DNA of 64,000 nucleotides, taken from Balanoglossus misakiensis. Lineage: Eukaryota > Animalia > Hemichordata. A program made the translations under genes and the position numbers. Of the stretch, positions 13,829 through 51,807 are shown one piece after another; within the stretch, counting starts at the first letter, position 1; the number at the start of each line of letters is the position of its first letter. The notes under the pieces were generated by a model, which saw only the letters and a list, made by a program, of their open reading frames with translations, ran no database searches and was not told the DNA's origin. The DNA lies in the NCBI GenBank assembly GCA_040954595.2, contig CM082581.2, forward strand, positions 5,138,699 to 5,202,698, in the 5' to 3' direction.

Positions 13829-16800
13829 TTACTTCACACCTTTAGCAGCCAGCTCCTCCTTGACTCGCTTCAGGTAATCGGGATCTGGGTACCCAAACCT
13901 GTAGTGAATATAAGAAACCCAGAAAAATGATTAATCTATACAACTTGATATTACCTCCTCTTCAACTATTAAGATAACTGGAATAGGACTTATTATTGTA
14001 GTACCGGGGGTATTTGACATAAACGTCAATATATATGCCTTGCCCTTGCACCGCATTTCAATTAAATAGGTTCAGCCATGTCTGACTAAACATGGCTGCA
14101 TGCAGATTGACATGCACACAGATGGATTGGAAGACAGACACAAGGATAACAAATCCCTGAAGAAGCAAATGTACTGGTTGGAACTTCAACTTACTCTCCA
14201 CTATAACGGAATGTCTTGTGATGAATCTCATTCCATGTTACAGTATCTGTAGCACCAGTTGTCATAGAAGTCCCAATGGTGAAAGTCAGTCGACGATTAA
14301 AAGCAATCTTCAGGAGTCTTAACACTTCACGACCTTCAGCATTGTTTGGTAGATAAGCAGTACGAGTTGTTCCAGAGTAAGGTTTGCCAGGATTTGGATG
14401 CTCTTTCTGCAGAAATATGAACCAGGTGAAAACTGTAGTTGACAATAACCTTTGAACAAATTTGAATGCTTTCACAACATCTTCCATAAGGGGTTGGGTT
14501 TAAAGCCCAAATAGCTGCCATATTGAATTTTTTTCATGATTAACGGGTGTCACGCACATTTATTTAGCTGCCCATTGCAAGTTAAGTGCACACAACTATC
14601 ATGGTTAACACACATACATTGTAGGTATTAGAATCGCCACAAGCCATTCTTCAAGGTCAAACTGATTTCAGTCAAGAGTATGGCCAATGCTACCCAATAC
14701 AGGACATTAAAGTACAATTTTGATAAATCATCAGTTGGGTTCATTTGGGCAAGTGGGGGTTTAGTTTACTTGCCCAAATTGGAAAAGCACTTAGTTGCCA
14801 AGTATAATTTCGATGGTTTGAAAAAAATCAAGAACATTTTTCATTTCACAAACTGAATATATGCATCTAACTTCATGATGTGGTAAGAAAATGTTAGTCA
14901 CTGTCTCATCAACCTTCATTGTACTCCAGGTTTGTCCATTATAGGTCATTGGTGGGTATTGTTTAAATATAGAGTTGTGGTATATTTCAACATACAAAAT
15001 TAACACATAGTTGTACGAAAGGTCTCTTACCCCCTGTACTCCATCTTTGAATGAATAGTTGATGACTATACAGCCACATCCTGGGTATCCTGAAAGATCA
15101 TTATATTTTTCCACCCGGTCCTTCATAGTTCCTTTTGGCATGTAACCAGTGACAGTCCCAAATGTTTGTTTGCAGATGGGACAGATTTGTCCATTAGTTT
15201 TTTCTGATGTATCAATACAACTCTTACAGAATGTGTGTTTACAGGGCAATGGCTTGGGTTTCTTCATCTTATCAAGACATATGGGACAATCACCATCTCT
15301 TGGATCATCGCTTGTTGCTTTCTGAAGAGAGGTTCCAGTTACTGCTTTGGGAACAGCTCCATGTGAACTATTTGGTTTACTACCATAAGTAGTTCCACCT
15401 TCAACATTAGGCCACAGTTTTGCTCTTTCTCTAACACCAACTTGTGATTCCATAGAATGGGGTGTGTCAATGCTACCATAACCAGATGTTGTTCCTTTAG
15501 AATGCCCACTTCCATCAACAGAGCTTTCTTTACTTCTGAATCTACCAGTAGTATCTGTTCCCATATAATTTGACATTTCAAAATTGCCACATGCTTTGGA
15601 AAACACTGATACAAATGATTCAAGAGTTTTGTCATTGATATCCATGAAGTGTATTTCCATGAGTGAACTTGCATGATTATGCAAATAATCAAACACCGCA
15701 TCAAACATCACTTCTGCACAAATATTCGTTGGAACTTCATAAATACCTGTAAAAATTGAAGTAGAGCCATGGTTATATGTGTAAGTGATCACGTGATACA
15801 AATTATGCAACACAGACAGTCGGGAAAAGAAAATAATGTGTACATTGAAGGGATATTACAGTAGACAGGGTTTCTTTGACCCTCTTTTGTTTATACCAGG
15901 TAAAACGTGAAAAGACATGGTAATGGCTATCTGCTTCTCAGGCCATAAACTGGACTGATATGTCTTCAACTCATAGTGACCAAATAGCAAAAGGAAAATA
16001 TGAGCTAAGATTTACGACTATCATCATGCATACATACCTGTGCCTATAGCTGGGATGGCAATGGACCTGGCCTTTAATTGTTCAGCCATAATGAGAAGGT
16101 TTGTACAGCATTTATATAAAGCAGCTCTCACTCCAGCTTCATTCCGCCCAGTCCACACAGGACCAACAGCATGGAGAACCCACTTGCTTGGAAGACTCCC
16201 TGCTTTAGTGTAGACTACTTCAGACAATCCAATCTGGCGTCCAGATCTACTTGCTATGATGTCATCACTCTCTTTCTGAATACTGTACCCTCCTGCCTTC
16301 ACAATAGCCCCAGCAACCCCTCCACCATGAGCTAGACTGCTATTTGCAGCATTAGCTATGGCATCAACATTTGCTTTTGTGATGTCTCCCCGACAAATGG
16401 AAATCTTGGTTTTTTGTGCTCCTCCTAATTCAAACTGTAGTAGAACTTTTCCAGTTTTGTCACTTCTATCATCTGAATTGCTTCTCTGAACTCCATGTAG
16501 CCCATGTCTTTTCCTTCCACCATGACGACCTGGTGGAACAGTCACACCAAGGAAATTGCAGAATGTTTCCATGGCAACCTTGACCTCATCTACCTCGCCC
16601 AATATTCTGAACTGTTTCTTTTCTGTTTCTTTTATTAAAACATTTCCAAATATTCTTTGTGTGCTTCTCTTAGCATCAGTTATCGAAGATGAAACATCCT
16701 TTCCAGTCAAATCTAGCTCCTTAGACACCATTTTTGAATGAAGACTTTGCACATATGAAACAAATTCTTCATAGACAGATTCCAACAATTGCTGTGTACA

Positions 16801-19800
16801 TTTAATGTTGCCCTTGGCGGGTTTTATGATGATGCCCTCACCCCCACCCCACATAAATTCTACACCATTTGAACGTTCCATGTCGTTCAGCCTATCTCTG
16901 TGTGCATGGAATAAGAAAGCTAGCATGTCTTGCCCAACAGTACCATGTTTGCTTAAACGTTCATCATGTTTATCCTTGGTTTCTAAAGCTTTGCCTCCAA
17001 TAAGATGACTAGTGTTAACTTTTGACACAACTGACACATTATCGCCTTTTCTAACTGTATCTTCTGTTACGTTTTTCTTTTCCCCAACAAGATTTTTTGT
17101 ATCTGATGCCCAAGCCTTCAATTTCTCTATCTGCAAAAAAGAATCATTTGCTGCCAAGGTTTTAGTTTGCAAATTTTTACTTTTCGTTTCTGGGCCCTGT
17201 TTCAATTGATGTTTAGCTCTGGATTGATCCTGATTACCTGCAGACTGACTGTCCTTTGCTGGATCTTTTCTGTTTGACAAACTTCGGGTTAGATGAGCAT
17301 ATGCAGGACTTTCCCTACCTGATTTATTAGTAGTTTCTGAAACGTCACCTTCTGTTCCTTGGCCTCCCTTCACTTGGGTTTTATTATGATTGGTGTTAAC
17401 CCTACTGTCAGACTGACTAATATTAGTTTTGAAGGTTGCTGAAACATCTGATAACCCACTTTCAGCTACCCCACTTGTTGCTTGATCTACTGCACCTTCA
17501 GTGTACATCTTACCAGTGGTGACTGGAGGCTTAATACCAATTTTTTGACACAATTCAAGCACTGCAATATCTAAATCTGTGTCATCCTCTCCAAGCAATT
17601 TGAAACATTTGGCATTTTTTGCTTTTGATTTAATATGAACAAATTTATTCTTCCTTTCATGGGAGTCTACAACTATTTTTGCTTCTCTTATTTTGTCTGA
17701 ATTGATGTTCAATCCCCGAAGATCAATTATTCTGTAGACAATTCTTAAAGATTTCATCAGTTCCTTGAATTTTTCACATGCATGTCTAACATCATCTGTT
17801 GAAGATTCTCCTTTTGGCGAGATGTAGACCTTTTTCTCATCTCTTTTCTGATCCCATGTAAGAAAAACTTTATTGGCTTTGATATCAATTAGTTCCTTTC
17901 TGCGTGTGGAAAACACATACTGCAATATATCTGGATCAGCTTCTATGAAAATAGGGCCACACTCAGGATTTAATGTCTCATTATTGGACCATTCCTCATT
18001 AGTTGATTCCCCTGGAGCTGCATCTAACCCCTCTCTTTCATTATCGTTAATTTCTAGTTCTCTCTGATATTCGGTTACCATGGAAACATTTTCATTGCCT
18101 TGATTTTGCATCAATGATAGCAATTTCTCATTTTCTTTAACAACATTTTCAAGATTCCCCTTCACAAGGAATTTATTTTCTGTCATTTTACATCTAAGTT
18201 TTTCATTCTGACGGCAATGTGCTGTCATACTCTTACGTAACGGTACAGGTAGTTCATCTAGTTTGACTGTGCCAATCACTTCAAGGAGTTCCTATGGAAA
18301 AAGATAGAAACATTACACTTTCGGACTCTTGCCTGCTTATTTAGTAAACGGGTTTATCACTAACAATGTCGGTAGCTTACATACCAATTAAGCGAAACAG
18401 ATGGTTGGTACATATGGAAAAGATTCAAAATCAATCAAAATGCAAAGCTTCCTTAAGCTTTGTTTGCATCAGAAGGATTTTAGATCCATACAATTAGGAC
18501 TGATGTGGGTCTTTTGTGCAACTGGCGAATTACACAATGTTTATGAAATTGGCACACCTCTATAATACATTCAAATGTCTTAATAGGTAAATTCTCCCAA
18601 TAATTGCACCAAGCTTAATTAGTTAAAAACTGTTTCAAGTTCAACATATCAGGAGTTGAAAATTGATAGAAAACAATAACACAGCAAAATGTTGCACATA
18701 TGAAAAAGTGAGTGTTTGTAATGTTGCTATCGATAGCAACCAATGCATGCTTTTGAATTCTATATCACTTGAAAGGGCGAAGTTCAGTCCAACAGATTTC
18801 TGCATATGTGCTAGCTTTAAGGTCAACTTTTCAGGAAAAAACATTTTCTCGCTGTATAACTCATTCGATTTTTTACAAAAGCAGGGAGAAATTGGCAGAA
18901 TTTCCAATGTGGTGTTTATTGTATTTTGAATCACAGGAAAAAAGTGCTGGGTCTAAATTCCGCTACTTTCATTGAGTATTTCACCCAAATTTCTGTGTAA
19001 AGCTCGTACCTTAGCCACCATGTTCTTTGTGCACCTGAAAATATTATTACCACGTAATAATACACTTCACAAGCAGACACACAGCTCCCTCTTGATACAA
19101 AAACATGGCATAATGTAATTTTAGTTTGATGATAAAAATAAATCTCTCTCTATATATACAGAGAACAAATAATTACTTACATTGCACTCACATGACTCCA
19201 ATGCAGGGTTAGTGTCAGATTGTACAGCTGCAATCAATTTGCTGTTGACATAATTCATCTTAATCAAATCTCCTCTGAAAACTACTGAGTCATCTTTAAA
19301 TTCATGGCATACATCAGTATCATGAAGTGCTCTTTCAACCAAAGACATAACTTCAGCATCTGCTAATGGTATCTTCTGATACAGCATTGTGGCAAATACA
19401 CTCTGGAACACAACTTGGTCTGATGTGCTCTGTAGAGGAAATATAAGATCCACCTATTAAAGAATCTATAAACTTGATATAAATCAACTACAATGTAGAT
19501 GCATGCCTGTTAGCTGTTTACAATGAATTAGTCATTGTCAGAGGTCCATGCTAAATCAATAGAATACAAAAGTTTTACAGGAAATCATGGTAGAATGAAA
19601 TAAGTCAAAGCATGCATTGCAAAATGGTTCTGTGTGAGTGTCTTATGAAGTATTAGCCTTGCGCCCTGCATGCATGATATGTATGACTTGGTCTCAATTT
19701 CACCACCAGACATGAAGAAACTAGCAGACATACAGCTATCCTTTCGATAATAATCATTGTGTTAGGACTCAGGCCGACTGAGGTGCAAATGATACACATC

Positions 19801-51700: not shown

Positions 51701-51807
51701 ATTTTAGGTGATTTAAAACGCTCCAAGCAGATTGAACATAGCATTATTTGTTCATTGATATCAGTTAAAAGTTTGTCACTCGAACCAGGTGTTGCAGCTG
51801 TTGCCAT
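42608..51807 (-). CDS. Copy 4 (complete, ~1896 aa): TRIM(RBCC)-41-aa repeats-KH-like-macrodomain-RING-DTC fusion
   Basis: Exons 51807-50692, 49782-49483, 49027-45781, 45086-44347, 43677-43460, 42677-42608. Same splice phases as copy 3. ATG assigned by homology ([10 protein letters not shown]). Confidence 0.9.
47258..48660 (-). repeat. Coding minisatellite, 123-bp (41-aa) unit x ~11.4, in copy 4
   Basis: [41 protein letters not shown] repeated in frame; the variant pattern recurs every 615 bp. Confidence 0.97.
50491..50640. repeat. Compound (CATC)n/(TACA)n/(CA)n microsatellite, same intron of copy 4
   Basis: Directly visible. Confidence 0.97.

Follow-up and report, generated by a model that had tools for sequence, protein, structure and literature searches.

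The minus strand of a 64-kb stretch of the genome of the hemichordate Balanoglossus misakiensis (assembly GCA_040954595.2, contig CM082581.2, positions 5,138,699 to 5,202,698; below, the window means this whole stretch) carries a tandem array of five gene copies, A to E. Each copy very probably encodes a single chain that joins a TRIM head to a macrodomain-bearing Deltex ubiquitin ligase. The order of parts is shared: a RING, two B-boxes and a coiled coil (RBCC), three to six KH-fold modules, one macrodomain, a second RING and a DTC domain. Copies B, C and D are complete (1636–1896 amino acids, aa), the unit size is roughly 14–16 kb, and the GC content of the window is about 37%. In the spliced models of all five copies the introns are without exception GT-AG, the frame is kept and there are no internal stops. 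By their defining domains the predicted proteins belong to both the TRIM and the Deltex families, but they are not canonical DTX3L, which has an RRM that is missing here. The coordinates that an earlier note on this DNA had given for the three complete copies hold good; copies A and E are added here.

Splicing of the TRIM head to the Deltex exons

Pfam scans found a RING and two B-boxes in all four visible first exons, a Macro match in all five large exons, and a second RING and a DTC domain, the latter divided over exons, 3' of the large exon. Together with the spliced models, these matches bear out the earlier claim that the RBCC exon ends in a phase-0 GT donor and continues in frame with KH-like, macrodomain, RING and DTC exons. 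The three junctions named in support of that claim (37087>35882, 50692>49782 and 21218>20985) are present exactly as given, all in phase 0. No usual TRIM C-terminal exon had been seen in between, and both approaches used here agree with this. Pfam scans were negative, and when the C-terminal tails (NHL, filamin, PARP, OGFr) of 11 related TRIM proteins were run against the window by tblastn, no such exon came up; the sole matches were RING/RBCC repeats within one query. The idea that filamin, NHL, PARP or OGFr exons lie hidden between the RBCC exon and exon 2 was rejected on this basis.

Several features make splicing of the RBCC exon to the 3' exons likely. The RBCC donor has the form GTRAG (R, A or G), in phase 0 and at the identical codon position in all five copies. 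Of the 4230 GT sites on the minus strand of the window, 2.2% have this form, and it is kept in copy B even though intron 1 of B is unrelated to the introns of the other copies. AATAAA and ATTAAA hexamers are absent from intron 1 of all five copies, whereas shuffled sequences give an expectation of 6.3 (P about 0.002), or, with the homologous introns of A, C and D counted once, of about 3 (P about 0.05). Over the 1.2 kb that precede each RBCC exon the CpG observed/expected ratio (o/e) is 1.27–1.34, versus 0.28–0.39 from the RBCC exon to the large exon; because CpG islands lie only upstream of RBCC exons, each unit appears to have one promoter. Intron 1 is as short as 232 nt in B and 650 nt in E, where the gene model splices the RBCC exon straight to the large exon. 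Between A, C and D, one block has been copied that comprises the RBCC exon, exon 2 and the beginning of exon 3. Two acorn worms, Ptychodera flava and Glandiceps talaboti, supply the closest relatives. When the RING exon of copy C was used as query, it retrieved P. flava XP_070540314, a 703-aa RBCC–KH-like–RING–DTC model. In this protein, its isoform XP_070540313 and Glandiceps talaboti XP_077992667, the RBCC is joined to the KH-like module of the array. The two P. flava isoforms differ by 5 aa about three residues beyond the donor position of the window, and RefSeq isoforms usually rest on transcript alignments.

The conserved donor, an intron 1 devoid of poly(A) hexamers and CpG islands, the short introns of B and E, the common block and the junctions modelled in two other hemichordates all argue against placing the RBCC and macro-Deltex exons on separate, or mostly separate, transcripts. 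In that case an RBCC-only TRIM would have as its neighbour a macro-DTX3L-like gene of the ordinary kind that starts from an unseen first exon of its own, an arrangement which we regard as quite improbable. A number of observations do favour it and so weigh against a single chain. The first Met 3' of the RBCC exon lies within or beyond the first KH-like module in A, B and E, but in C and D exon 2 contains a Met before that module, and codon 3 of the large exon is a Met in A, C and D; TRIM-less products from internal Met codons are possible. A matrix made from the window's own donors places the RBCC donors last, at the 75th–86th percentile of GT sites, although this matrix comprises 14 sites, none of them GTGAG, and is too narrow. 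Reading through the donor yields an RBCC-only frame with 9, 57, 152 or 492 extra codons. For the 3' half, the nearest full-length relative is P. flava XP_070541067 (1663 aa), whose model has no RBCC and begins level with exon 2, and the RBCC exons are much younger than the 3' halves. In word-based, insensitive searches, 5 of 16 longer relatives of the array RBCC carried a DTC and 0 of 16 a macrodomain, and B-box and macrodomain occurred together in none of the 6 long matches of a relatives search. In addition, the supporting relatives are all automatic gene models. With both sides considered, we retain the one-chain RBCC–KH–macro–RING–DTC protein, and the array genes are real and probably expressed. 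Skipping from the RBCC exon to the RING exon was rejected as a source of RBCC-RING-DTC isoforms, as the phases clash (donor 0, acceptor 1, at exon-boundary acceptors).

Domains of the predicted proteins

All four visible RBCC exons match the RING profile PF00097 (E 1.5e-11 to 3.6e-10) and, in two stretches, the B-box profile PF00643. The coiled coil is assigned by homology, at 53–56% identity to annotated TRIM-NHL proteins over 98–100% of the exon; relative to P. flava TRIM-NHL heads identity is 53–58%, the nearest hemichordate RBCCs of the TRIM family being TRIM56-like and TRIM2/3-like. Pfam PML_CC matched two of the four exons weakly and under the cut-off. Every one of the eight zinc ligands is present in the visible TRIM RINGs (4/4) and in the Deltex RINGs (5/5), and the RBCC exons are under purifying selection (ratio of nonsynonymous to synonymous rates, dN/dS, 0.14–0.30). 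The array proteins thus begin as TRIM proteins do, with a RING, two B-boxes and a coiled coil, but their KH, macro, RING and DTC C-termini differ from those of classes C-I to C-XI, which are defined by COS, FN3, SPRY, PHD, BROMO, MATH, TM, FIL, NHL and ARF (PMC10445537). No class-defining TRIM C-terminal domain was found in Pfam scans of the exons, which upholds the earlier view that the architecture falls outside all defined classes; only the catch-all C-V would admit it.

The AlphaFold2 model of the large exon of copy B contains five beta-alpha-(alpha)-beta-beta-alpha modules separated by disordered linkers. Foldseek with this 751-residue model returned macrodomain-containing entries only, and the macro-proximal KH pair was therefore folded alone (predicted local distance difference test, pLDDT, 91.7). 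Its top matches in a fold search were type I KH domains, at a moderate Z of 8–9 and a root mean square deviation of about 2.4–2.7 Å over about 70 residues. The KH-like assignment of the earlier note is therefore backed by fold, while Pfam support is faint (KH_DTX3L, E = 0.041, in one of seven stretches). The prediction for copy B, a step that the note had proposed, recovered both the KH folds and an MD1-like macrodomain. The GxxG loop is not visible in the alignment of the KH modules, and because of this RNA binding by them is doubtful. No RRM match was obtained in any scanned exon of the array, unlike in macro-DTC relatives, which show RRM_PARP14 matches.

The macrodomain had been taken for a reader of ADP-ribose, a view that we do not share. 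Its best single-domain matches are the first macrodomains (MD1) of PARP9 (88 bits) and PARP14 (71–74 bits), versus 49–51 bits for PARP14 MD2 and 44 bits for PARP14 MD3. In fold comparison MD1-type hydrolases reach Z-scores of 15.5 and 15.3, versus 13.8, 11.6 and 11.4 for others. Hydrolases are marked by an Asn or Ser and a Gly flanking loop 1 and by a hydrophobic-aromatic pair in loop 2 (PMC10221186). Copies A, B, C and E keep the Asn, the Gly at Asn+8 and the loop-2 Ile-Tyr; at Asn+8 there is Cys in copy D and Asp in P. flava XP_070541067. Asn+8 presumably corresponds to G832 of PARP14. The G832E substitution is reported to block PARP14 MD1 (PMC10499325). The reader MD2 of PARP9 has Pro347 at Asn+8, and P347G confers RNA de-MARylation (bioRxiv 10.64898/2026.08.12.744356). 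On these grounds the array macrodomain is probably not a pure reader, with the hydrolase signature in four of five copies, and that of copy D is likely a binder only. Residue signatures are no proof of hydrolysis, which counts against an eraser. A chain as modelled in which the macrodomain merely reads ADP-ribose and brings substrates to the RING-DTC would agree with the Cys of copy D, the Asp of XP_070541067, the PARP9 MD2 precedent and the recurrent hydrolase loss in PARP14 MD1 (PMC10221186). We consider it unlikely in view of the residues kept in the other four copies and of the top rank of MD1-type hydrolases by sequence and fold. A PARP9-derived macrodomain was also rejected; PARP9 is described as restricted to jawed vertebrates (PMC10221186).

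The DTC profile PF18102 matched over split exons, and the tandem RING-DTC is complete at the C-terminus of B, C, D and E. The catalytic residues of DTX3L are H707 and E733 (PMC10810221); by counting along the printed DTX3L chain, the equivalent His and Glu are kept in all four complete DTC domains, and the position of Y719 holds Tyr in C and D and Phe in B and E. Coordinates are collected in the table.

Table. Gene models and other features of the window (window coordinates; minus-strand features of the gene copies are given 5' to 3')
Feature	Coordinates	Strand	Remarks
Copy A	7507 to past left window edge	-	RBCC–macro–Deltex gene, 1340 aa visible
Copy A exons	RBCC 7507-6392; 4636-4337; 3916-2110; 1553-844; DTC exon from 89 (cut at edge)	-	
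Copy B	22333-13829	-	8 exons, 1636 aa
Copy B RBCC exon	22333-21218	-	372 aa; homology to other copies stops 12 nt beyond donor
Copy B linker exons	20985-20839, 20639-20493	-	147 nt each; tandem duplicate, symmetric phase 0-0; could be alternatively spliced
Copy B KH-like exon	19429-19181	-	
Copy B large exon	18291-16038	-	five KH-fold modules, macrodomain N part; AlphaFold2 modelled
Copy B 3' exons	15746-15031; 14406-14195, 13898-13829	-	macrodomain C part/RING; DTC
Copy C	38187-28546	-	6 exons, 1842 aa
Copy C RBCC exon	38187-37087	-	367 aa
Copy C exon 2	35882-35583	-	KH-like module 1
Copy C large exon	35059-31954	-	KH-like modules, macrodomain N part
Copy C 3' exons	31397-30664; 29907-29690, 28615-28546	-	macrodomain C part/RING; DTC
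Copy D putative promoter and non-coding first exon	51808-53007	-	CpG o/e 1.27; likely donor near 52751; function putative
Copy D	51807-42608	-	6 exons, 1896 aa
Copy D RBCC exon	51807-50692	-	RING, B-box1, B-box2, coiled coil; 372 aa; phase-0 donor
Copy D exon 2	49782-49483	-	KH-like module 1
Copy D large exon	49027-45781	-	KH-like module 2, 123-bp repeat, two KH pairs, macrodomain N part
Repeat in copy D large exon	47259-48660		123-bp unit repeated 11.4 times (96% alike), frame kept; encodes charged linker, 41 aa per repeat
Copy D next exon	45086-44347	-	C part of macrodomain (loop 2), linker, second RING, start of DTC
Copy D DTC exons	43677-43460, 42677-42608 (stop)	-	
Copy E	63999-57260	-	RBCC exon cut by right window edge, final 15 nt visible
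Copy E exons	RBCC end 63999-63985; 63334-60511; 59550-58916; 58393-58176; 57329-57260	-	
(CATA)n and (CA)n microsatellites	5050-6351, 36681-37059, 50520-50646		directly 3' of RBCC donor in A, C, D; open long junk reading frames
Intergenic tandem repeats	9844-10524; 54170-54463		240 bp, 2.8 copies; 154 bp, 1.9 copies
Dispersed element	about 11058-11350, 25617-25887, 39624-39908, 54787-54990		common to the four places

Relatives and history of the TRIM–Deltex join

A HMMER search with XP_070540314 gave 5869 matches at E ≤ 1e-10, and the best 150 of these were analysed with our own profiles; the query favours RBCC-DTC proteins, and the counts are therefore not frequencies. Among the best 150, 137 carry a DTC, 14 B-box and DTC, 27 Macro and DTC, and one all three. 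Pfam adds a fifteenth B-box and DTC protein, P0031. Models with RBCC and DTC occur in eight named species of four phyla: P. flava (XP_070540329, XP_070540314), G. talaboti (XP_077992667), a Branchiostoma hybrid (XP_078684009), Dendronephthya gigantea (XP_028398988), Saccostrea echinata (XP_061197621/2), Potamilus streckersoni, Haliotis cracherodii and H. rufescens (XP_048249660). These unnamed models resemble the array proteins in having RBCC and DTC in one predicted chain, but all except that of H. rufescens are without a macrodomain, and some are without a second RING by our own profile. The full triple of RBCC, Macro and RING-DTC was thus found once among the best 150, in the abalone H. rufescens (1053 aa). 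Its RBCC is only 25% identical to that of the array, our profiles find no KH modules in it, and it is probably convergent. As to whether the architecture is already a widespread annotated family, the RBCC-DTC join is indeed present in annotations of four phyla, but the combination with a macrodomain is not widespread among these matches. The three closest annotated RBCCs (62–63% identity) all belong to P. flava RBCC-RING-DTC models, which probably lie on one chromosome with XP_070541067.

The other half of the architecture is older. The array proteins share with DTX3L a C-terminal RING-DTC with catalytic His and Glu and type I KH-fold modules, and with the macrodomain-bearing DTX3L of non-tetrapods also the macrodomain (bioRxiv 10.64898/2026.04.23.720386). 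They differ from DTX3L in that an RBCC with a second RING takes the place of the N-terminal RRM, and in being products of 1636–1896 aa from a five-copy tandem array. DTX3L is reported to have lost its macrodomain upon the emergence of PARP9 (bioRxiv 10.64898/2026.04.23.720386). Because Macro with RING-DTC has been published as the pre-PARP9 form of DTX3L, we regard this combination as ancestral. The earlier idea of a fusion between a PARP9-like reader and a DTX3L writer is not supported, as the combination is widespread (27 of the best 150 matches) and PARP9 does not extend beyond jawed vertebrates; the accompanying surmise that Macro and DTC may already be combined in non-mammalian animals fits the published pre-PARP9 form. 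The PARP9/DTX3L heterodimer and PARP14 MD1 likewise bring together an MD1-type ADP-ribosyl hydrolase and a Deltex ligase, which has been discussed as possible proofreading (PMC10810221), whereas in the array this is one chain with a single macrodomain and no MD2 reader. From the macroPARPs (PARP9/14/15) the copies differ by their single macrodomain and by the lack of a PARP domain; Pfam and tblastn found no PARP catalytic domain in the window.

What is new is the TRIM head, and the architecture is less unique than the earlier note held, being half ancestral, with a TRIM–Deltex join that stands unnamed in many annotations. No description of a TRIM–Deltex protein was found in the open-access literature, judged mostly from listings and with subscription journals largely outside. 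The main text of bioRxiv 10.64898/2026.04.23.720386 (Figure 1d and the supplements lie outside this statement) contains no TRIM, B-box, fusion or hemichordate, and the portion of PMC13224862 drawn on here contains no TRIM–Deltex fusion.

The RBCC exons of A–D form a tight clade (support 100/99) with 83–94% identity and a synonymous divergence (dS) of 0.16–0.34. Among B, C, D and E, identity in the KH and macro regions is 31–62%, with dS near 1 or saturated, and dS of the 3' domains ranges from about 0.65 to saturated; the 3' halves of A and C are 96% identical at the DNA level and hence recent. Because the RBCC exons (83–92% identity or more) are far more alike than the 3' halves to which they are joined (40–55%), the TRIM head is young. 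D and C are homologous from the promoter, through the RBCC exon and exon 2, to a point about 230 nt into the large exon, and homology between D and B ends at the donor. From these boundaries we infer that a promoter-RBCC cassette was put on, or homogenised across, older macro-Deltex paralogues. The 3' part would be an old invertebrate ligase of the DTX3L-like, macrodomain-bearing type, and the RRM usual at its N-terminus is not found here. The cassette would have been recombined from a neighbouring RBCC–RING–DTC clade and then spread or homogenised by unequal crossing-over or gene conversion.

Blocks homologous to the putative promoter of copy D are found upstream of A, B and C. An 11-mer that we take to be IRF-like occurs at 8242, 23188, 39204 and 52633, with an extended ETS-IRF-like form in B and D. 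It lies about 110 nt into the intron that follows what is likely a non-coding first exon, with donors near 8360, 39322 and 52751. The four blocks are mutually homologous, and their motifs are therefore not independent evidence.

RING-DTC trees, weakly supported at their deep nodes and built without a DTX1-4 outgroup, place RBCC-bearing proteins beside RBCC-less ones from the same lineage; the RING-DTC of an amphioxus RBCC-Deltex protein, for instance, is 89% identical to that of an amphioxus macro-Deltex protein. A single clade of RBCC-bearing Deltex modules was rejected (approximately unbiased test, P = 6.8e-5, 7 changes) in a quick tree of 15 RBCC-bearing and 15 RBCC-less rows chosen after an earlier tree, a setting in which gain and loss are indistinguishable and within-lineage gene conversion gives the same picture.

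Other chains met in these searches are listed for completeness. The RBCC clade of the array also heads NHL repeats, a KH-WWE-PARP protein and an OGFr domain. The second is P0021 (1032 aa), in which a same-clade RBCC (44% identity to copy D) precedes PARP14-like KH modules, a WWE and a PARP catalytic domain; it is a TRIM-headed ADP-ribose writer and possibly a partner type for the array proteins. The third is P. flava P0173 (997 aa), with an RBCC 53% identical to that of copy D, an acidic linker and PF04664, which we take to be the OGFr N-terminal domain. P0031 (579 aa) combines a vertebrate-type RBCC (TRIM_CC, E 5e-43) with a RING-DTC 75% identical to that of an anchovy DTX3L-like protein and is probably a teleost TRIM–Deltex. 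P0011, P0012 and P0013 (fish and frog models) have two or three RING-DTC units per chain and are either true tandem ligases or fused models of neighbouring genes.

A possible ubiquitin and ADP-ribose relay

As the best explanation of the array we propose five genes for a one-chain, clustering-gated ADP-ribose/ubiquitin editor in innate defence, a proposal to which we give about an even chance. The coiled coil would dimerise the protein and the B-boxes would cluster the dimers, as in TRIM assembly (PMC10445537). The DTC with its adjacent RING would esterify ubiquitin onto bound ADP-ribose, or onto nucleic-acid ends, and the MD1-type macrodomain, that of copy D likely excepted, would strip ADP-ribose or ubiquitin-ADP-ribose as a form of proofreading. 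Attachment of ubiquitin to ADP-ribose by Deltex RING-DTC and removal of the adduct by MD1 have both been described (PMC10810221). The TRIM RING, active upon clustering, would extend the priming ubiquitin to chains, with the outcome that sparse marks would be erased and targets with dense marks polyubiquitylated. The DTC itself reportedly binds ADP-ribose, and TRIM RINGs are said to be activated by proximity.

The closest known parallel is the MARUbylation relay of DTX2 followed by RNF114/RNF166, in which one of two RING ligases primes and a second E3 extends chains on the Deltex-primed ADP-ribose in human cells (PMC12583694). There, the two are separate proteins, whereas the array has both RINGs in one chain. 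Pfam did not find Di19-UIM, the ubiquitin-ADP-ribose reader of RNF114, in the array exons. Two further points weigh against the editor: an active eraser on the same chain might counter the ligase, and the immune role is one that we infer from the homologues, the diversifying array and the one IRF-like motif.

A simpler version keeps the single chain but makes the RBCC a dimerising or localising scaffold only, with the RINGs acting independently on protein lysines (auto-ubiquitylation, turnover) and no relay. The promiscuity of the head, seen also on NHL, KH-WWE-PARP and OGFr proteins, would fit, as would the RBCC-DTC models without a second RING and the distance of about 1100–1650 residues between the RINGs, much of it predicted to be disordered (as seen in the large exon of B). 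Yet both RINGs keep every ligand under purifying selection, long flexible linkers permit a relay, and the recurrence of RBCC–Deltex joins across lineages suggests a specific benefit. We hold a mere scaffold to be rather unlikely and keep the editor as our working model.

More speculatively, and with only a modest chance of being right, TRIM–Deltex proteins may be an unrecognised TRIM class that has arisen repeatedly (in cnidarians, molluscs, hemichordates, amphioxus and probably teleosts). In the array's RBCC clade, the one head would then serve both an RBCC-KH-WWE-PARP writer and an RBCC-KH-macro-RING-DTC eraser and ubiquitylator. These would assemble a self-contained immune lattice, in which the diverged paralogues A, B, C and E would be tuned to erase marks and D to read them. 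If this is true, such a lattice would write, proofread, prime and extend ubiquitin-ADP-ribose.

Of greater interest are the recurrence of the TRIM–Deltex join and the eraser-type macrodomain. The former suggests that clustering aids Deltex ligases and points to a class outside the vertebrate-based TRIM scheme. The latter bears on how ubiquitin-ADP-ribose is primed, extended and erased, an active question of interferon biology, where PARP14, PARP9, DTX3L and RNF114/166 share the job. Since one natural chain holds a pair of RINGs, a DTC and a hydrolase-type macrodomain, mutants of single domains could test the relay, and copy D with the other copies offers a natural reader-versus-eraser pair. 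Overall, the array protein would combine jobs that mammals divide among several proteins.

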